Below, in pieces: positions 1,291 through 12,729 of a DNA stretch of 64,000 bases. The stretch spans positions 1 to 64,000 of the forward strand of contig CAWFDF010000013.1 in the NCBI GenBank assembly GCA_963814585.1, read 5' to 3'. Origin of the DNA: an uncultured delta proteobacterium. GTDB taxonomy: Bacteria > Myxococcota > Myxococcia > Myxococcales > Anaeromyxobacteraceae. How positions within the stretch are numbered: position 1 is the first letter of the stretch; each line of letters begins with the position of its first letter. The translations under genes and the position numbers were made by a program. The notes under the pieces are model-generated. The model did no database searches. It had not been told where the DNA came from and was given only the letters and a program-made list of their open reading frames with translations.

Positions 1291-1854
1291 CTACTTGATC
1301 CGGTAGTCGCCCTTGGGGCGGGTCTTCTCCAGCTCGGCGCGGACCAGGGCCAGCTGCTCCTGGAAGCGCGCGTTGCCGGGCTCGTACATGAGCGCCCCCT
1401 TGAGCTGGCGCTCGGCGGCGTCCCAGCGCTGGGCGCCGATCTCGACCAGGGCGGCCGCGTAGAACTTCCGGCCGTTGGGCGTCTGCCCCAGCTGCTCCTC
1501 GAGCTTGCGCTTCTGGCCGGCCAGCACCGCCGACTCCTCGGCCTCGGTGAAGCGGAGCTTCCTGGTCCGCTCCGGTCCGGACACGTCGGCCAGGTACTTG
1601 ACCCGCTTCTGGTCGTCGCGCAGCACCGTGTAGGCCTCGTTGATGCGCCGGTAGATGCGGCCGATCATCTCGCGCACCGCGGCGCTCTCCACCGCGGCGT
1701 ACCGGTCCGGGTGGTAGGCGCGTGACTCGCGGTAGTAGGCGGCCTTGACGTCGGCGGCGCCGGCCCCGGGCTCCAGCTTGAGCACGCCGTAGTAGTCGAG
1801 CTGGTCGAGCACCGTGGCCAGCATCTCGACCTCCATGAGGAACTGCGCGTCCAT
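1291..1854 (-). CDS. J-domain (DnaJ-like) co-chaperone with C-terminal TPR-like helices
   Basis: DYYGVL...KAAYYRESRAYHPDRY...INEAYTVLRD (HPD motif); lies directly downstream of the Hsp70 gene. Confidence 0.9.
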   Translation of the reverse strand: MDAQFLMEVEMLATVLDQLDYYGVLKLEPGAGAADVKAAYYRESRAYHPDRYAAVESAAVREMIGRIYRRINEAYTVLRDDQKRVKYLADVSGPERTRKLRFTEAEESAVLAGQKRKLEEQLGQTPNGRKFYAAALVEIGAQRWDAAERQLKGALMYEPGNARFQEQLALVRAELEKTRPKGDYRIK

Positions 1855-1873
1855 GGGTGACCTGGTGCCTCGC

Positions 1874-3478
<1,605 letters not shown>

Positions 3479-3480
3479 GG

Positions 3481-4530
3481 TCAGACAATACTCCAAGGCC
3501 GGGGCACGAAGATGGCCTCCCAGGTCGCCAGCGCGAAGCGATCGGTCATCCCGGAGAGGAAGTCGGTGGCCGCCCGCTCCAGCGTCTCGCCGGGGCGCAC
3601 CGCCGCGCCGTGGCGGGCCTGGAGCCGCGCCGCGTCCTCCAGGCACCAGGCCAGCAGGTCGCGCAGGATGCGCTGCGCCTTGACGAACTCCTCGTGCACC
3701 TCGGGGTTCTCGTAGACCCGGGCGTAGAGGAACTCGCGCAGGCCGAGCAGCGCGGCGTGCACCGGCGACGACATCTCGATGTGCGCGGCCTGGTCGAGGT
3801 CGGAGTGGGCGATGACGTCGCCGATGAGCGTGGCCAGCCGCTGCGAGTGGCGCGCTCCCAGGGTGCGCTTCACCTCGGCGGGCAGGTCGGCCTCGGTGAG
3901 CAGCCCGGCCCGCACCGCGTCGTCGAGGTCGTGGTTGACGTAGGCGATGACGTCGGCGAGCCGGACCACCTCGGCCTCGAGGGTGAGCGCCTTGGTCCCG
4001 GTCCCATGCATGAGCACGTTCCCGCGACCCTTGGAGTGTCGCAGGATGCCGTCGCGCACCTCGGCGGTGAGGTTGAGCCCCTGGCCGTCCCGCTCCAGCA
4101 CCTCGACCACCCGCACCGACTGGAGCACGTGGTGGAACCCGCCGGAGACGGACTCCGCCAGCACCCGCTCGCCGGCGTGCCCGAAGGGCGTGTGGCCGAG
4201 GTCGTGCCCCATCACCATGGCCTCGACCAGCATCTCGTTGAGCCGCAGCGCGCGGGCGATCGACCGGCCCACCTGCGCCACCTCCAGGGTGTGGGTGAGC
4301 CTGTTGCGGTAGTGATCGCCGCGCGGCGCCAGGAAGACCTGGGTCTTGCCGGCCAGCCGCCGGAAGCTCTTGCAGAAGAGCAGCCGGTCGCGGTCGCGCT
4401 GGTAGACCGGCCGCTCGTCGTCCTCCGGCTCGGGCTCGGCCCGGCCGAGGCTCCCCGCCGAGCGCGCGGCGCGCGGGTGGAGGGTCCGCGCCTCCTGCTC
4501 CTCCAGCATGGCTCGGATGGTCGGGCGCAT
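3481..4530 (-). CDS. dgt: Deoxyguanosinetriphosphate triphosphohydrolase (HD family)
   Basis: YQRDRDR, FRRLAGKTQVF, RLTHTLEVAQ, GHDLGHTPFGHAGE, DFLSGMTDRFA. Confidence 0.95.
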   Translation of the reverse strand: MRPTIRAMLEEQEARTLHPRAARSAGSLGRAEPEPEDDERPVYQRDRDRLLFCKSFRRLAGKTQVFLAPRGDHYRNRLTHTLEVAQVGRSIARALRLNEMLVEAMVMGHDLGHTPFGHAGERVLAESVSGGFHHVLQSVRVVEVLERDGQGLNLTAEVRDGILRHSKGRGNVLMHGTGTKALTLEAEVVRLADVIAYVNHDLDDAVRAGLLTEADLPAEVKRTLGARHSQRLATLIGDVIAHSDLDQAAHIEMSSPVHAALLGLREFLYARVYENPEVHEEFVKAQRILRDLLAWCLEDAARLQARHGAAVRPGETLERAATDFLSGMTDRFALATWEAIFVPRPWSIV

Positions 4531-4567: not shown

Positions 4568-5344
4568 TCACGGATAGAAGGAGCGCTCCAGAGTGAGGAC
4601 GAGCAGGTTGGAGAGGGCGTGGGCCACGGTGGGGGCCACCACCGACCCGGTGCGGGCCCGCAGCCAGCCGAAGAGCAGCCCCGGGAAGAAGGTGGCCAGC
4701 CGCCACGGCTGGCCCGAGACCAGGTGGCCGACCGCGAAGAGGGCCTGGGTGGCGAGGAAGCCGTGGCCGATCCGGGCCCCCAGCACGGTCACGCCCCGCC
4801 CCGGCGCCAGCCGCGCCCAGGCGGTCTGCAGCCAGCCCCGGTAGAACAGCTCCTCCGGCAGCGCCACCACCAGCAGCTGCAGCAGCGCGGTCAGCGCCAG
4901 CGACTCGGGGAGGCGGAAGGCGAGGACCGGCACCCCGACGTAGGGCGAGAGGACCCGGGCCACCCCCGCCGGGAGCCTCGGGACCAGCTCGGCGAAGCCG
5001 ATGAACGCGGCCACGAAGAGCGGGAAGATCACGGCGCAGCAGAGCAGCCCCTGCCAGGCGCCTCGCGCCAGCTCGCGCCGGCCTCGTCTCGGCCCGGTGG
5101 CGATGAAGCCGGCGCCGTAGGCCTCCCAGCCCTCGCCTCGCTCGCGCAGCCGGCGATCCGCCAGCACCACGAAGAGGACGGCGCCGACCCCGGCGAGGTT
5201 GGAGGCCAGCAGGCCGGTGGGCTCCGCCAGCGAGATCAGGCGCGCCGCCAGCAGCCCGCCCACCGCCAGCCCCCAGGTGGCGACCAGCCCGCCGGCGCTC
5301 TCGGGCGGGGGCGTCTCGGTGGCGGGCGGGAGGGGCCGGGGCAC
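4568..5344 (-). CDS. CPBP (Abi/CAAX) intramembrane glutamic endopeptidase, myxosortase (MrtX)-like
   Basis: PEELFYRG, FAVGH, WRLATFFPGLLFGW and AHALSN motifs in a multi-TM protein; start uncertain (GTG at 5344 chosen). Confidence 0.85.
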   Translation of the reverse strand: MPRPLPPATETPPPESAGGLVATWGLAVGGLLAARLISLAEPTGLLASNLAGVGAVLFVVLADRRLRERGEGWEAYGAGFIATGPRRGRRELARGAWQGLLCCAVIFPLFVAAFIGFAELVPRLPAGVARVLSPYVGVPVLAFRLPESLALTALLQLLVVALPEELFYRGWLQTAWARLAPGRGVTVLGARIGHGFLATQALFAVGHLVSGQPWRLATFFPGLLFGWLRARTGSVVAPTVAHALSNLLVLTLERSFYP

Positions 5345-5483
5345 GCATCCGGATCTCACGCGTGGCGGCAAGGAGTCAACGTCCAGCGCGCCGGCACGCC
5401 CGGCGGTCGGGCCGGCGTCGCGGGCGTGTGGGCGACGCTCCGACATGCCGGGGCGGCGTGGAGTCGGGCGCGTCCCGGCGTCG

Positions 5484-5516: not shown

Positions 5517-8500
5517 ATGCCCAGCTCACGCCGCCCCAACGCGCCACTCGTCACGGGGCTCGGCGCGCTCATCGCCGTCGCGATGGCGCTGCCGCTCCTC
5601 GCCCCGTCCTGCTCCGACTACCAGCCGGGCGTGAAGGCGTTCGCCAAGGGATCGCTGATCATCCCCATGGACGTCTGCTACCAGTACCAGACGGACCAGG
5701 TGAGGACCTCCTACACGCCGTCGACCAGCTGCCCCGGCGGCACCGTCGAGGGCGGAGACGTCATCAAGGCCTACGGCCTCGTCTACCAGCTCATCCGCAA
5801 CGGCGTGGCGGTCTACTGGATCATCGACCCGGCCAAGGCGGCGCTCGACACCCCCGACCTGGCCCTGCAGTTCAACGCCGGCTTCCCGGTGCTCAAGTAC
5901 GACTGGAGCGGCGCGGCCCCCAGCGTGGCGCCCAACACCGGCAACCACACCGTCAAGTACCTGGGCGGCCCGTTCGTCATCGACGGCTCCGACGCCGCCA
6001 AGGCGGCGCAGGTCTTCCAGAAGTACCGGAGCACCTTCCGCCCCACCGCCACCACCGGCGTCAACGTCCACGTCGCCAACGTCGCCTTCCAGGCCAGCGT
6101 CGCCAAGATGCTGGCCGGCGGCTGGAGCGCCGGCGGAGCCACCCCTCCCAAGCTGGCCCTCCTCAACATCGGCAGCTCCGGGGCCGGCTCGAAGAACTCC
6201 GAGGTGGTGATCCGCGGCTACCTGCAGAAGGCCGGCCTCGACATCTCCGAGCCCGACCCGGCCAACCCGGCCGTGCTGCTGGCCGCCGGCGGCTCGGCCT
6301 CCGGTCCCCACGGCACCATCTACGACCGGCTGGTGATGGAGGACTTCATCCCCAGCACGCCGGGCGACTGGACCACCACCAACCTCTCCAGGAACGGCTA
6401 CCAGATCCTCTGGGTGCCGCACTGGGCCGCCCCCACCTCCTGCAGCGACTGCCCGCCCGGCACCACCTGCCCCTGCCAGAACAAGTACCCGGCCGCCACC
6501 ATCCAGCAGGCGCTCCTGACCATCGGCGCCTTCGGCGCCGCGGGGAAGGACATCTTCGCCGAGTGCGCCGGGCTGGGGAGCTTCGAGGGCGTGGCCGGAG
6601 ACGCCGACTACGGCACCGCCGTGGCGGAGACCCACTTCCAGACCGTGGTCCCCTCCCCGCTGAGCGGGGCCCTCTCCATCAACACCAGCGTCTCCAGCAC
6701 GCCCATCTACCAGCCGGGGTACTTCGCCTCCCCGCTGATGCAGCTCGGCGACTACCCGTTCATCCCGCGCACCGGGGCCATCCAGAACTACCGGCCGGCC
6801 GGCACCTCCACGGCCTACGTCACCGGGGGCACCGACGCCACCGTCCGGCTCATCTCCGAGACCAACGGCGGCGGCGCCTACGACATCTTCACCCACCGTC
6901 CCGGCCTCAAGACCGGTCACGGCGCCTTCGTCTACCTGGGCGGCCACAGCTACTCCGGCACCGACGGCAGCTTCGAGGTCGGCGGCACCCGCCTGGTGCT
7001 CAACACCCTCTTCAACCTCGGCGCCGGCTGCACCGAGAGCGGCGTGGCCTGCGACACCGGCCTGCTCGGCACCTGCGGCCGAGGGGTCTTCAAGTGCGCC
7101 GCCGACGGCAGCACCTACTGCGCCCAGAGCCAGTTCCCGGCCGCCGCCGAGGCCTGCAACGGCCTCGACGACAACTGCAACGGCCTGGTGGACGAGGAGC
7201 TCGACGAGGCCTGCTACGACGGCCCGGCCGGCACCAGCGGCGTCGGCCTCTGCCACGGTGGCCTGAGGAGCTGCGTCCGGAACGGCGACGGCAGCTACGG
7301 CTTCACCGCCTGCACCGGCCAGGTCACGCCGCAGGCCGAGGTCTGCAACGGCCTCGACGACGACTGCGACGGCGCCCCGGACGAGGAGCTGGTGCGGAGC
7401 TGCTACGACGGCGACGCCTCGACCGTCGATCCAGCTACCGGCGTCCCGCGCGGCGCCTGCAAGGCCGGCGTCCAGGCCTGCTCCGACGGGAGCTGGGGCT
7501 CGTGCCGCCCCTGCACCTCGGCCGAGGCGCAGCTGAATCCCCCGCCCGCCGAGTGCCAGGTGCTGCCGCGGCCGGACGACTGCAGCTGCGCCGAGTGCGG
7601 CGGCGGCGGGCAGGACTGGAACTGTGACGGCCAGATCGCCCAGTGCACCGCCTGCGCCCCCGCCGCCGTGCGCGCCTGCTACACCGGCCCGGCCGGGACG
7701 GCCGGCGTCGGCGTCTGCCTGGCCGGGACCCAGACCTGCGACGCCGCCGGCAACTGGGCCACCTGCCAGGGCCAGCAGCTCCCGCAGGCCGAGGTCTGCA
7801 ACAACGCGGTCGACGAGGACTGCAACGGCGTGAACGAGGCCTGGCCCGCCAACTCCAGCTGCGGCGAGTGCGTCAGCGGCACCTCCGAGCCCTGCTACAC
7901 CGGGCCGGACGGGACCGCCGACCGGGGGATCTGCAGGTCCGGGACGCGCCTCTGCGCCGGGGGCGCCTGGGGCGCCTGCGGCAGCGGCACGCCGCCGACG
8001 CTGCCGGTCAGCGAGGTCTGCGACGGCCTGGACAACGACTGCGACGGCGTGACGGACGACGACGCCCAGTGCGGACCGGGCTTCGCCTGCGTCAACGGCG
8101 TCTGCGTCTACGACGCCTGCGGCCCCGAGATCCCCTGCGCCGAGGGGTACGCCTGCGTCACCGGTCGGTGCCAGCTGGCCGGGTGCGGGAGCGGCGGCCA
8201 GTGCCCGGCCGGCTTCACCTGCCGCAACGGCTCCTGCGTGGATCCCAACGCCGGCCTCACCTGCGGCCCCGGCTCGTCCCCGGCCGGCGGCTTCTGCACC
8301 GGCGGCGCCTGCTACGAGGCCGGCTGCGGCGGCGGCCAGATCTGCCTCGAGGGGTCCTGCGTCGCCGACCCCTGCGCCGGCGTCATCTGCCCGGGCGGCA
8401 CCTTCTGCCGGCAGGGCGACTGCGTCCAGGCCTGCGCCTTCCTCGCCTGCGCGACCGGCCAGCGCTGCGACGCGGACGGCTTCTGCGTCGCCGACCCCTG

Positions 8501-10904
8501 CGCCGGCACGAGCTGCGGACCGACCCAGACCTGCGTGGACGGGACCTGCATCGCCGATCCCTGCGCCGGCGTCGGCTGCGGCCGCGGCCAGGCCTGCCGC
8601 GACGGGGCCTGCCAGGACAATCCGTGCGCCGGCATCCTCTGCCCGACCGGCCAGTGCCAGGTGGGCCAGTGCTACGCCACCGGCAGCACCGCCGGCACGC
8701 CGGAGACGCCCGAGACCAGCGGCTGCGGCTGCACCACGGGCGGCCCGGGCACGCCGCTGGCCCTGCTGGCCCTGCTGGCGCTCGCCCCCCTGGCCCGCCG
8801 GCGCCGGCGTCCGGGGTCCCGCGGCGCCGCGCTGCTCGGCCTGCTGGTGCTGGTGACCACGGCGGCCGGCTGCAAGAAGGAGGCGCCCTTCGATCCGGCC
8901 ACCTGCACCGCCCCCGGCGTCGGCCTCACCGTCTGCGAGGGCGAGGAGCGCTGCGTCGACCTGGTCCTCGACCCGTCCCACTGCGGCAGCTGCGGCCGCT
9001 CCTGCCAGGCCGGCGAGACCTGCGTGGACCAGGTCTGCGGCCCGGCCAGCAGCGTGGCCCCCACGGTCACCGGGGTGTCGCCGGTGACCATGCCGCGTGG
9101 CGGCCTGGCCCCGGTCACGCTCGAGCTCTCCGGCCAGCGCTTCGCCGCCGGCGCCACCGTCCGGGCCACGCACCTCGGCGGAACCACCACCTTCGCCACC
9201 AGCTTCCTCGACGCCAGCCACCTCTCCGCGCTCATCGACCTCAGGGACGCGCCGCCCGACACCTGGCAGGTCCGGGTCGTCAACCCGGACCGGGTCATCT
9301 CCAACCAGAAGGCCGTCCCGGTGGTGGTCCCCACGCCGGCCATCACGTCGCTCACGCCCAGCAGCGCCGCGGTCGGCGCCATCACCACCGTCCGGGTGGC
9401 CGGCACCGGCCTCATGGCCGACAGCCTCTGCCTGATCGGCGGCCCCGCCCTGGCCGACCTGGCGCTCCCGGCCACCCTCACCCTCTCCGGCCTCGACTGC
9501 GAGGTGGACCTCTCCACGCTGCAGCCCGGCCCGTACCAGATCTGGGTGGCCAACCCGACCGGCGGCGGCAGCCCGCTCCTCTCCAGCAAGCTCCCCTTCA
9601 CCGCCACCAGCAGCGGCAGCACCACGCTCGACTCCCTGGCACCGACCGCCGGCCAGTACAACACCATCACGGCGCTCACCGCCTTCGGCTCCGGCTTCGA
9701 CATCACCAGCCGGGTCGTCTTCGTGGTCACCATCCCGCCGGCCGCGGCCGTCGAGCTGGAGCAGGCCACCTCCTTCCGCAGCTCCACCGAGCTGCACGTG
9801 GCGGCCCTCGACCTGACCCGCTGCCCGGGGCCGGTGGTCTGCCCGGCCTCCGGCTCCGGCGCCCTCTACGCCATCAAGGTGAGGACCGGCTCCGGCCAGG
9901 CCGGCCCCCTGGCCTACACCATCGACAGCAACCCGCCGCAGGCCAACTCGCTCTCGCCGGCCTCGGCCTACCAGGGGGATCAGCCGGTGGTCACGGTGAC
10001 CGGGACCAACCTCGCCGGCGGGGTGCTGCAGTACCAGCCCCCGGGCGGCGCCTTCGTCACCGCCACCAGCACCAGCTCGACGGCCACCAGCGCCACCGGC
10101 ACCATCGACCTGATCGGGACCCCGGTCGGGACCTACCAGGTCCGGCTGCAGTTCCCGACCGGCGCCTTCTCCGCCTCGCTCCCCTTCAGCGTCCTCTCCA
10201 ACGCCGCCGTCCTGCAGGCGGTCAGGCCCGGCAGCGGCGTGCAGGGGATCAACCCGCTCACGGTGACCCTGGACGTGGCCAACCTCCGGCCGCCGGCCAG
10301 CGGCGTGACCGTCGAGTTCTCGGCGCGGCCCGGCGTGGTGCACCCCACCGCCTCGGTGAACGCCACCGCCATCACCACGCAGCTCGACCTGCGCGGCCTC
10401 GTCAGCGGGCCCTACACGATCCAGGTGCGCAACCCCAACGGCGCCCCGCTCTCCAATCCCTCCAACTTCACGGTGACGCCCGGCCCTCCCACGCTGGCCA
10501 GCGTGGGCTGCACCGCCCCGGCGCAATGCCCCACCGCCACCAGCGCCCCGCAGCAGGTGGCGCGGATCCCGGTCACCATCGCCGGCACCAACTTCGCCAG
10601 GCCCGACCTCACCGGGGCCAACGGCTCCACCGTGCACGTCTTCGCCAACTGCACGCCGGTGGTGAACGCGGCCAACCAGGTGACCGGGTGCACCTGCACC
10701 GGCACCTCGCCGTGCATCCCCGATCGGGCCATCGACCAGACCTACAGCCAGGTGACGGTGGTCTCGTCGACCCAGATCGACCTGCTCATCGACACCACCG
10801 CCGCCCTGCCCGCCACCTACTCCTTCTGGGTCTGGAACCCCGGCGGGTCGCCGGCGCCACAGCGCTCCAACCGGCTGCTCGACGCCTTCACCATCACGCC
10901 TTGA
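5517..10904 (+). CDS. 1795-aa Cys-rich cell-surface protein: signal peptide, N-terminal globular domain, MopE-like repeats, Cys-rich repeats, internal MYXO-CTERM, second lipobox, six IPT/TIG-like domains
   Basis: N-terminal hydrophobic stretch ending LLAPSC; E.CNGLDD.C.G repeats; ADPCAG..C repeats; SGCGCTTGG...LALLALLALAPLARRRRR; LLGLLVLVTTAAGC; DPSHCGSCGRSC; P.(V/I)T.(V/L)SP-type Ig-like repeat starts. Strong GC3 codon bias throughout. Confidence 0.88.
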   Translation: MPSSRRPNAPLVTGLGALIAVAMALPLLAPSCSDYQPGVKAFAKGSLIIPMDVCYQYQTDQVRTSYTPSTSCPGGTVEGGDVIKAYGLVYQLIRNGVAVYWIIDPAKAALDTPDLALQFNAGFPVLKYDWSGAAPSVAPNTGNHTVKYLGGPFVIDGSDAAKAAQVFQKYRSTFRPTATTGVNVHVANVAFQASVAKMLAGGWSAGGATPPKLALLNIGSSGAGSKNSEVVIRGYLQKAGLDISEPDPANPAVLLAAGGSASGPHGTIYDRLVMEDFIPSTPGDWTTTNLSRNGYQILWVPHWAAPTSCSDCPPGTTCPCQNKYPAATIQQALLTIGAFGAAGKDIFAECAGLGSFEGVAGDADYGTAVAETHFQTVVPSPLSGALSINTSVSSTPIYQPGYFASPLMQLGDYPFIPRTGAIQNYRPAGTSTAYVTGGTDATVRLISETNGGGAYDIFTHRPGLKTGHGAFVYLGGHSYSGTDGSFEVGGTRLVLNTLFNLGAGCTESGVACDTGLLGTCGRGVFKCAADGSTYCAQSQFPAAAEACNGLDDNCNGLVDEELDEACYDGPAGTSGVGLCHGGLRSCVRNGDGSYGFTACTGQVTPQAEVCNGLDDDCDGAPDEELVRSCYDGDASTVDPATGVPRGACKAGVQACSDGSWGSCRPCTSAEAQLNPPPAECQVLPRPDDCSCAECGGGGQDWNCDGQIAQCTACAPAAVRACYTGPAGTAGVGVCLAGTQTCDAAGNWATCQGQQLPQAEVCNNAVDEDCNGVNEAWPANSSCGECVSGTSEPCYTGPDGTADRGICRSGTRLCAGGAWGACGSGTPPTLPVSEVCDGLDNDCDGVTDDDAQCGPGFACVNGVCVYDACGPEIPCAEGYACVTGRCQLAGCGSGGQCPAGFTCRNGSCVDPNAGLTCGPGSSPAGGFCTGGACYEAGCGGGQICLEGSCVADPCAGVICPGGTFCRQGDCVQACAFLACATGQRCDADGFCVADPCAGTSCGPTQTCVDGTCIADPCAGVGCGRGQACRDGACQDNPCAGILCPTGQCQVGQCYATGSTAGTPETPETSGCGCTTGGPGTPLALLALLALAPLARRRRRPGSRGAALLGLLVLVTTAAGCKKEAPFDPATCTAPGVGLTVCEGEERCVDLVLDPSHCGSCGRSCQAGETCVDQVCGPASSVAPTVTGVSPVTMPRGGLAPVTLELSGQRFAAGATVRATHLGGTTTFATSFLDASHLSALIDLRDAPPDTWQVRVVNPDRVISNQKAVPVVVPTPAITSLTPSSAAVGAITTVRVAGTGLMADSLCLIGGPALADLALPATLTLSGLDCEVDLSTLQPGPYQIWVANPTGGGSPLLSSKLPFTATSSGSTTLDSLAPTAGQYNTITALTAFGSGFDITSRVVFVVTIPPAAAVELEQATSFRSSTELHVAALDLTRCPGPVVCPASGSGALYAIKVRTGSGQAGPLAYTIDSNPPQANSLSPASAYQGDQPVVTVTGTNLAGGVLQYQPPGGAFVTATSTSSTATSATGTIDLIGTPVGTYQVRLQFPTGAFSASLPFSVLSNAAVLQAVRPGSGVQGINPLTVTLDVANLRPPASGVTVEFSARPGVVHPTASVNATAITTQLDLRGLVSGPYTIQVRNPNGAPLSNPSNFTVTPGPPTLASVGCTAPAQCPTATSAPQQVARIPVTIAGTNFARPDLTGANGSTVHVFANCTPVVNAANQVTGCTCTGTSPCIPDRAIDQTYSQVTVVSSTQIDLLIDTTAALPATYSFWVWNPGGSPAPQRSNRLLDAFTITP
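7149..8066 (+). repeat. About five tandem MopE-like Asp/Cys-rich protein repeats
   Basis: EACNGLDDNCNG, EVCNGLDDDCDG, QDWNCDG, EVCNNAVDEDCNG and EVCDGLDNDCDG, interleaved with CY(D/T)G...G.C..G units. Confidence 0.8.
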
Positions 10905-11313: not shown

Positions 11314-12729
11314 ATGACCGCCCCGCGCGTCCGCTTCGCCCCCTCCCCGACCGGCTACCTCCACATCGGTGGCGCCCGCACCGCGCTCTTCAACTGGCTC
11401 TACGCCCGGCGTCACGGCGGCACCTTCGTGCTCCGCATCGAGGACACCGACCGGGAGCGCTCCACCCGGGTGGCGGTGGACGCCATCCTCGAGGGGATGC
11501 GCTGGCTCGGCCTCGACTGGGACGAGGGGCCCGGGGTCGGCGGCCCCCACGGTCCCTACTTCCAGACCGAGCGGCTCGACGTCTACCGGTCCCACGCCGA
11601 CCGGCTGGTCCGGGAGGGCAAGGCCTACGTCTGCACCTGCAGCCGGGAGGAGCTGGACGTCCTCCGCAAGCAGGCCGAGACAGAGAAGCGCCAGTTCCGC
11701 TACCCCGGCACCTGCCGCGGCAGGTCCCGCGACCCGTCGGAGCGCCACGTCATCCGGCTCATCGTCCCGGAGACCGGCGCCACCAGCTTCGACGACCTGG
11801 TCAAGGGGACCATCAGCACGCCCCACGACACGCTGCAGGACGAGGTGATCCTGCGCGGCGACGGCATGCCGCTCTACAACTTCGGCGCGGTGGTCGACGA
11901 CGTCACCATGGAGATCAACCTGGTGGCGCGCGGTGACGACCACGTCAACAACACGGCGCGGCAGATCCTCATCTACCAGGCGCTCGGCTACCCGGTGCCG
12001 GCCTTCGCCCACCTGCCCATGATCCTGGGCGCCGACAAGACCCGGCTCTCCAAGCGCCACGGCGCCACCAACCTCATGGCCTACAGGGACATGGGCTACC
12101 TCCCCCAGGCGCTGGTCAACTACCTGGTCCGGCTCGGCTGGTCGCACGGCGACCAGGAGATCTTCACGCTGCCGGAGCTGATCGCGGCCTTCGACTGGAA
12201 GCAGGTGGGGGCCACCGCCGGCGTCTTCAACCCGGACAAGCTGCTCTGGGTGAACCACCAGTGGCTGCGCGCCCTCCCCGAGGAGGAACTGGCGGCGCGC
12301 GCGCTCCCCTACTTCGCGGCCGCCGGCCTGCCGGCGGCGGACGACCAGAAGCTCCGGCTGGTGGTCCGGCAGCTGCGCGAGCGGGCCAAGAGCTTCGTCG
12401 AGATCGTCCAGCAGGCCCGGTACTTCTACGCCCCCATCCAGCTCGACGAGAAGGCGAAGGCCAAGCAGCTCACCGCCGAGGCCCGCCCGCTCCTGGCGGC
12501 GGTCCGCGACGGCGTGGCCGGCATGGAGGCCCTGGGGCTGGAGGCGCTGGAGCGGCTCTTCGCCGGCGTGGCCGCCTCGGCCGGGGTCGGGCTCGGCAAG
12601 GTGGCCCAGCCGGTCCGCGTGGCCCTCACCGGCGGCACGGCGTCCCCTGGCATCCACGACGTGGTGATGATCCTCGGCAAGGCCGAGACGCTGGCCCGGC
12701 TCGACGCCGCCCTGGCCCTGATCGGCTGA
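11314..12729 (+). CDS. gltX: Glutamate--tRNA ligase
   Basis: RFAPSPTGYLHIGGARTALFN, LRIEDTD, RGDDH, RLSKRHGA. Confidence 0.97.
   Translation: MTAPRVRFAPSPTGYLHIGGARTALFNWLYARRHGGTFVLRIEDTDRERSTRVAVDAILEGMRWLGLDWDEGPGVGGPHGPYFQTERLDVYRSHADRLVREGKAYVCTCSREELDVLRKQAETEKRQFRYPGTCRGRSRDPSERHVIRLIVPETGATSFDDLVKGTISTPHDTLQDEVILRGDGMPLYNFGAVVDDVTMEINLVARGDDHVNNTARQILIYQALGYPVPAFAHLPMILGADKTRLSKRHGATNLMAYRDMGYLPQALVNYLVRLGWSHGDQEIFTLPELIAAFDWKQVGATAGVFNPDKLLWVNHQWLRALPEEELAARALPYFAAAGLPAADDQKLRLVVRQLRERAKSFVEIVQQARYFYAPIQLDEKAKAKQLTAEARPLLAAVRDGVAGMEALGLEALERLFAGVAASAGVGLGKVAQPVRVALTGGTASPGIHDVVMILGKAETLARLDAALALIG

Follow-up and report, generated by a model that had tools for sequence, protein, structure and literature searches.

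A predicted two-unit lipoprotein precursor with an internal MYXO-CTERM tag, encoded beside mrtX in a member of the Anaeromyxobacteraceae

The DNA analyzed here (the window) is a 64,000-nucleotide stretch of contig CAWFDF010000013.1 from the genome assembly GCA_963814585.1 of an uncultured member of the Anaeromyxobacteraceae (Myxococcota). It encodes P0001, a protein of 1795 amino acids in which a MYXO-CTERM sorting tag lies in the middle of the chain and runs directly into a second, lipoprotein-type export signal. From the sequence and its homologues, we consider it probable (roughly 70%) that P0001 is a polyprotein, cut by the myxosortase MrtX and by Lgt/LspA into two separately lipid-anchored envelope proteins, called here unit A (before the junction) and unit B (after it).

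The junction of P0001 and its predicted processing

The junction peptide extends from S1068 (nucleotide 8718) to C1119 (nucleotides 8871-8873). Its first part is the complete motif that an earlier note on this DNA had placed inside the open reading frame (ORF) at about residue 1069, namely a GCGC signature, a transmembrane helix, and an Arg tract, the last at amino acids 1094-1098 (8796-8810). When TIGR03901 was run on the protein, a check the note had proposed, residues 1068-1098 scored 27 bits against a cut-off of 20. The same tag reached 34.6 bits in the genome-wide search, and TIGR03382 also matched (17.7 bits, cut-off 15.85). The genome holds five TIGR03901 matches, of which the P0001 tag is the top-scoring and the sole internal one, with 697 amino acids beyond the motif. 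Because it lacks the C-terminal position, P0001 is not a canonical MYXO-CTERM member, though its predicted processing is that of a MYXO-CTERM substrate.

The second hydrophobic segment, described in the note as ending in a lipobox-like AAG-C, is present, with C1119 as its Cys. Between the tag Cys and this segment there is no stop codon and no in-frame ATG or GTG, as the note had stated, and TTG is absent too; the segment itself contains two GTG (Val) codons. With no start codon ahead of it, the unit B signal does not lie at the N terminus of a translated product. C1119 is residue 26 from Arg1094, inside the range of 15-35 for a lipobox Cys, and P0001 fits a PROSITE-type lipoprotein pattern. 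The junction Cys fits this pattern in 78 of 86 homologues, compared with 555 of the 8400 other Cys residues (6.6%) in the same proteins. In L030, a lipoprotein encoded on its own, the N-terminal lipobox aligns with P0001 residues 1108-1174 with the Cys in register (44.8% identity over 67 residues, E = 3e-11), and AAGC is the third commonest lipobox among the N-terminal lipoprotein candidates of the genome (6/79). The note's estimate of about 680 residues after the junction was close: 676 follow C1119, comprising a Cys module and six beta repeats.

GC at third codon positions stays at 0.98 on both sides of the junction and over it (four segments measured), which indicates that P0001 lies in the coding frame along its whole length. 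An assembled contig from public run X3, which may come from the source study, bridges positions 8475-9332 with 10 differences and no gap. Together with the in-frame junction in dozens of independent genomes, this contig shows that the junction is not an assembly artefact. A promoter and terminator scan returned no match.

We propose that unit A would be exported by Sec until the tag helix stops transfer, leaving in the cytoplasm the Arg loop, whose net charge is at least +3, and that the second helix would act as an internal signal that re-opens export, taking unit B into the periplasm as well. The GCGC Cys would be lipidated and MrtX would cut behind it, freeing unit A (approximately 1040 amino acids) for display via type II secretion (T2SS), a route from MrtX and its tag that has been shown for TraA (PMC11980579). 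Lgt would lipidate Cys1119 and LspA would cut before it, giving a 677-amino-acid lipoprotein on the inner face of the outer membrane or on the surface; this product could also remain periplasmic rather than be surface exposed. A hairpin of approximately 50 amino acids would be left behind.

The divergent neighbour of P0001, which did not feature in the first sequence reading, is mrtX. The two ORFs are approximately 160 bases apart, and this is the only copy in the genome over the NF040593 cut-off. Two lgt, two lspA, and one gspD gene also exceed their cut-offs. The note's reading, in which one gene would yield two separately anchored proteins, is supported by this analysis, and the enzymes it invokes are encoded in the genome. 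Among 22 homologous loci, mrtX adjoins the ORF in 18, all from the window's family. In 12 long forms the two genes are divergent, head to head, whereas six shorter forms have mrtX on the same strand, directly downstream. The six (L082, L087, L109, and L291-L293) are mostly approximately 1300-1400 amino acids long, with fewer immunoglobulin-like (Ig) repeats. Preprint 10.1101/2023.06.07.544157 defines the tag as C-terminal and states that no operon was found to combine a myxosortase with a target; the six same-strand loci look like exceptions to this statement.

Conservation and wider occurrence of the junction

Homologues were collected with P0001 residues 950-1400 as the query and a length range of 987-3142 amino acids, which biases the set toward fused forms. 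Among 120 of the 126 proteins found, 86 (query included) match both the head domain of unit A and unit B, and all 86 keep the junction. A script that required a tag, a basic loop, a second helix, and a small residue followed by Cys recognized 82, and four were identified by inspection. This pattern scan was adopted in place of a profile built from census tags because the profile missed 22 of 92 family proteins. The distance from the Arg tract to the Cys varies from 22 to 52 amino acids among homologues while both signals stay. Proteins of 1737-1743 amino acids in the finished genomes of Anaeromyxobacter dehalogenans 2CP-1 and 2CP-C (A. dehalogenans accessions WP_012632672.1 and WP_011421644.1), Anaeromyxobacter sp. 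K, and A. oryzae are fused, so the fusion that the note had asked about in finished genomes is indeed kept there. The arrangement that the note had named as evidence against its reading, two separate genes with a stop and start at the junction, was not found. At E 1e-60, 65 of the order's 301 genomes proved to have the head domain, and 51 of 91 in the window's family.

Searches were also made for separate halves. For unit B (lengths 387-1232 amino acids), the search gave 29 matches, 10 of them close, and no free-standing form came to light, only fragments and one frameshift product. P0005 is a fragment of the fused form, P0121-P0128 start inside domains on contigs of 1.7-6.4 kb, and P0129 owes its post-junction start to a frameshift, the gene being broken further upstream as well in that assembly. 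For unit A, 140 new head-domain relatives included 16 with a junction, one with a terminal tag (P0176), and 123 with neither by pattern. Among the 123 are fragments and PilY1-like proteins, and in at least one (P0175) the pattern overlooked a junction. P0176 is a 963-amino-acid relative of unit A that ends in a terminal MYXO-CTERM, possibly a two-gene form or a frameshift; a genome scan for P0176 returned Cys-repeat relatives only. P0113 as a query likewise gave Cys-repeat matches only.

The junction also occurs outside the P0001 family. A junction profile run across the phylum (401 genomes) gave stop-free, full-length matches among the 150 listed of 812, and most of the 39 matches examined lie in proteins unrelated to the P0001 family. 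To avoid selecting on the second signal, a census was made with TIGR03901 hits alone in six genomes, scoring 150 candidates per genome and counting a tag as internal when it lay 80 amino acids or more from a stop. All 17 tags of G166 and all 20 of G270 were taken, and the best 30 of 51, 60, 59, and 34 in G164, G101, G172, and G056, respectively. Three of the genomes had been picked for a junction shown by the profile scan, and this choice, with the candidate limit, means that the census rate is not an estimate for the phylum. Internal tags made up 21 of 157 (G166, 1; G270, 1; G164, 9; G101, 0; G172, 5; G056, 5); one of the 21 (L263) is probably spurious. All 21 are followed by a second hydrophobic stretch and 18 by a cleavage motif (14 called type I and four type II), whereas the controls gave such a motif in 6 of 136 cases when terminal tags were read through in frame and in 18 of 556 windows from ectodomains. 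In a further set of 80 loci picked by Cys repeats (107 frames), 10 tags were internal (nine type II) and 32 terminal.

Across the 60 distinct junctions collected, the second units fall into 17 clusters unrelated to one another, one singleton among these being a frameshifted member of the P0001 family. Second units include TraB-like barrel/OmpA proteins, which should need release from the inner membrane. TraB itself (L130, NF033763 over cut-off) aligns with the second unit of the ftsZ-adjacent L102 from the signal onward (30.5% over 590 residues, E = 5e-61). In P0115, two units that are 59% identical begin alike, one after the N-terminal signal and one after the internal signal. Several junctions can share a frame: three internal junctions lie in one 3905-amino-acid frame (L274:2997-14711 (-)), two internal junctions and a terminal tag in L275:1425-8744 (+), and two internal junctions in L083:2707-12126 (-). 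The junctions of these three loci join paralogous CARDB/He_PIG units. G164 has 9% contamination and some frameshifts, and frameshifts at the edges suggest that some multi-junction ORFs are longer than read. As further examples, L102:3-12764 (+) and L103:2-4543 (+) are ftsZ-adjacent Ig-repeat/TraB-like fusions with a type I signal after the internal tag, and in L093:7075-13344 (+) the junction leads into a beta-helix/DUF6531/RHS-repeat unit.

We lean, with some reserve, toward a general secreted-polyprotein system in the Myxococcota. A portable, cleavable hairpin would link two to four envelope proteins (surface adhesins, lipoproteins, and outer-membrane barrels) and be cut by MrtX and signal peptidase I or II, with the mrtX-linked gene as the dedicated two-lipoprotein substrate in the Anaeromyxobacteraceae.

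Alternative readings

Several observations weigh against a polyprotein cut at two sites. The residue at -3 of the unit B lipobox is Ala, not the canonical large aliphatic residue, and Leu stands at -3 in only 8 of 65 junction boxes as opposed to 43 of 79 N-terminal lipoprotein candidates of the genome; judged by sequence, the box is weakly canonical. The tag has a single Cys in A. dehalogenans, whole-protein TIGR03901 searches of P0291 and P0019 fell short of E 0.001, and mrtX is not adjacent in four loci of families f2 and f5. The type I and II signal calls come from a purpose-made heuristic, not SignalP. No true two-gene version of the P0001 family was found, P0176 being the sole unit-A-only protein with a terminal tag, and no description of an internal lipobox was found in the literature searched, which covered few subscription papers.

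The alternative that fares best, although we think it unlikely, is that only one cut is made. In one version, MrtX releases unit A and the uncleaved hairpin holds unit B in the inner membrane, with Cys1119 lipidated or not; in the other, Lgt/LspA releases unit B and it is unit A that remains on the hairpin. Two chains would still arise from one gene, one of them anchored by a helix. The weak -3 residue, the single-Cys tag of the A. dehalogenans homologues, and the residual function retained by uncleaved tags (PMC11980579) are consistent with a single cut. It is opposed by both junction Cys residues, which are invariant in alignment A1, by the small residue that precedes the second Cys in nearly all homologues, by the linkage to mrtX, and by the clear Ala-x-Ala sites of type I junctions.

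If no cut were made at all, P0001 would sit in the inner membrane by two helices, both of its large halves being periplasmic, and its signal-like features would be relics of fusion. The topology is self-consistent without cleavage, but relics should decay, yet both Cys and the cleavage-site residues are retained even where homologues share just 30-40% identity. The same joint also heads barrel/OmpA proteins and recurs up to three times per ORF, and we regard this explanation as improbable.

It is more doubtful still that unit B arises by in-frame internal translation initiation near the junction, which would make its signal an ordinary N-terminal one. CTG codons are frequent in the first helix, and in 11 of the 29 family loci with DNA an ATG, GTG, or TTG occurs somewhere in the tag. 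However, these are at scattered positions, none of the upstream starts in the 29 junctions has a GGAG, GAGG, or AGGA site, and none of the 29 loci has an ATG, GTG, or TTG from the Arg tract to 16 amino acids before the Cys. The other 18 loci, P0001 included, have no common start codon anywhere in the junction, and 19 of the 21 census junctions have no start codon between the Arg tract and the second helix. Full-length chains would, in any case, still need handling. Finally, a sequencing or assembly error that merged two genes is hardly credible: frameshifts do occur in the gene, inside the second helix in G002 and approximately ten codons past the Cys in G303, but both assemblies also break it elsewhere, the truncated P0082 and P0103 cluster with the full-length P0290 and P0296, and the fusion in 86 clusters and in independent finished genomes already refutes it.

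Features of the locus, related systems, and meaning

Table 1. Coordinates of the P0001 locus in the window
Feature	Position	Strand	Basis
mrtX, myxosortase gene	4568..5359	-	NF040593 185 bits, cut-off 180; start codon about 5344-5359
P0001 precursor ORF, predicted two-unit polyprotein	5517..10904	+	ATG 5517 to stop ending 10904, 1795 aa
N-terminal export-type signal of unit A (aa 1-32), ending in conserved Cys32	5517..5612	+	Basic start, hydrophobic stretch, APSC/APTC in most homologues
Unit A head domain (aa 31-505)	5607..7031	+	Predicted structure, conservation
MopE-type Cys-rich repeats (aa ~540-850)	7134..8066	+	PF11617, 55.5 bits, 4 stretches; limits from sequence
Tandem Cys-rich stalk repeats (aa ~851-1052), then short Thr/Pro/Glu linker	8067..8672	+	Sequence
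MYXO-CTERM tag inside the chain (aa 1068-1098), with GCGC signature, transmembrane helix, and five Arg	8718..8810	+	TIGR03901
Second, internal lipoprotein-type signal (aa 1094-1119): Arg tract shared with tag, hydrophobic stretch, AAG-C1119	8796..8873	+	Alignments, pattern
Unit B Cys module, MXAN_6577-like / STIG1-like	8871..9047	+	NF041328, PF04885, both below cut-off
Unit B, six IPT/TIG-like beta-sandwich repeats	9057..10901	+	AlphaFold2 model, PF01833

For the signal-like N terminus of unit A, a single homologue among 86 matches the lipoprotein pattern; Pro stands at -2 of Cys32, and the conserved A-P-[ST]-C at the end of the segment is not a standard lipobox. Unit A may be anchored at both ends, or Cys32 may be in a disulfide. 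The head domain had no Pfam or NCBIfam match, and neither a PDB sequence search nor the protein atlas yielded anything usable for it. Its structural model (predicted local distance difference test, pLDDT, 76) places a class I glutamine amidotransferase-like/ThuA-like fold at residues ~208-505 (6138-7031), with 4jqs at Z 13.3 (root-mean-square deviation 3.1, 218 residues aligned) and many further rows of this fold at Z 9-12; Foldseek returned 2gk3 at E 5e-4. A conserved Glu349-Cys350 sits at a strand-helix turn and His477 is conserved too, both in close relatives and in distant ones (Cys350 in 85 of 94 rows, His477 in 77 of about 85). The placement of Cys350 and the conservation of both residues suggest, in this model, that the domain may be a Cys-His hydrolase. 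A Cys-His-Glu catalytic triad is expected for the class I glutamine amidotransferase-like fold; here, the residue two after His477 is Tyr, not Glu. Distant relatives form 1170 clusters at E 0.001. Some form the N-terminal part of PilY1-like proteins (of 13 distant relatives scanned, 3 had PF05567 over cut-off), and an adhesin role is therefore as plausible as a hydrolase. In family f8 (L374-L377), the head domain occurs in separate lipoproteins of approximately 700 amino acids with neither tag nor unit B, and a weak unit-B-like neighbour of the f8 protein in L374 proved to be an unrelated Ig protein. The Cys-rich stalk repeats are common to many terminal MYXO-CTERM proteins.

In unit B, NF041328 gave 34-36.3 bits for one partial module (cut-off, 100 bits), and PF04885 (STIG1-like) gave 23.9 bits, just under its cut-off of 24.1. 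The AlphaFold2 model (pLDDT 82) has six all-beta repeats of approximately 95 amino acids each, for which Pfam TIG (PF01833) exceeded its cut-off. NF058597 (choice-of-anchor Z repeat) was passed by the homologues P0291 and P0019 and did not match P0001.

Upstream of mrtX, 1291-4530 (-) encodes a DnaJ-domain protein, a DnaK-like chaperone, and a dGTP triphosphohydrolase, and 11314-12729 (+), downstream of the ORF, encodes glutamate-tRNA ligase; DnaK-like and gltX neighbours were found again in L281-L283. Elsewhere, two near-equal lgt-lspA pairs lie at G000 C18:12891-14357 and C9:312111-313574, with a weaker copy of each gene on C8, which reflects either duplication or bin contamination. Terminal MYXO-CTERM tags of two paralogous proteins of approximately 1870 amino acids lie at G000 C3:184014-184106 and C14:363545-363637, and a weak second CPBP-family match was found approximately 5 kb from the C14 copy.

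The MYXO-CTERM motif and traAB were defined in PMC3325183. MrtX cleaves TraA and MXAN_4924, FLAG-extended tags are still cut, and MrtX suffices in Escherichia coli (PMC11980579, Guo, Haft, and Wall, 2025). P0001 shares with these substrates a tripartite tag over the TIGR03901 cut-off, a Cys-rich stalk, and the presence of MrtX and a T2SS in the genome, and its conserved N terminus resembles an export signal, but its tag lies far from the C terminus and runs into a second export signal. PMC11980579 also describes ORFs adjoining mrtX in Anaeromyxobacter as divergent and motif-bearing, which fits the P0001 locus, although in the accessible part of that paper the motif is not called internal.

Internal MYXO-CTERM motifs are described as rare in the same source, whose authors propose processing of the N-terminal part for MXAN_5598 of Myxococcus xanthus. 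MXAN_5598, which is in a vesicle proteome list (PMC4158809), resembles P0001 in its internal tag and presumed gene fusion. It differs in being called atypical, with no second signal or fate of the C-terminal part proposed in what was available of PMC11980579, and its C-terminal part is a barrel/OmpA protein rather than of lipoprotein type. We infer from architecture and neighbourhood only that L102 and L103 are orthologous to MXAN_5598. A precedent for cleavage is HVO_0405 of Haloferax volcanii, a fusion whose central PGF-CTERM tag is cut by archaeosortase in experiments (PMC7157517, PMC9263693), but there the fusion is strain specific, the enzyme belongs to another family, and the accessible part of PMC7157517 describes no second export signal. 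In the literature searched, which included few subscription papers, no description was found of a sorting tag that is joined to another export signal.

The traA-traB pair is alike in that a MYXO-CTERM protein is followed immediately by a partner with a signal peptide, but it consists of two genes, whereas P0001 and the TraB-like fusions have neither the stop nor the start. In L130, the traA stop and traB start overlap, which suggests how such fusions arise: the junction likely originated when the overlapping stop and start of a traAB-like gene pair were lost. The fusion is likely kept because two partners would be made and exported together in equal numbers. In Bradyrhizobium FbcH and in the envelope precursors of flaviviruses and alphaviruses, a stop-transfer helix combined with an internal signal yields several exported proteins. 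These hairpin polyproteins use signal peptidase only, whereas P0001 is predicted to have a sortase-like cut and two lipid anchors.

An internal MYXO-CTERM was already published for MXAN_5598; the design with a second signal recurs across the phylum, with type I signals as well. If the proposal is correct, a "C-terminal" sorting tag would double as the start of the export signal of the next protein, giving bacteria membrane polyproteins in the style of viruses, and Lgt/LspA and signal peptidase I would be able to act on internal sites. Signal predictors confined to N termini would miss such signals, and many Myxococcota genes annotated as single giant proteins would encode several proteins. Since the precursor and its predicted products would differ greatly in size, the junction could readily serve to report on the myxosortase cleavage site, the Cys-lipidating enzyme, and the order of the steps.

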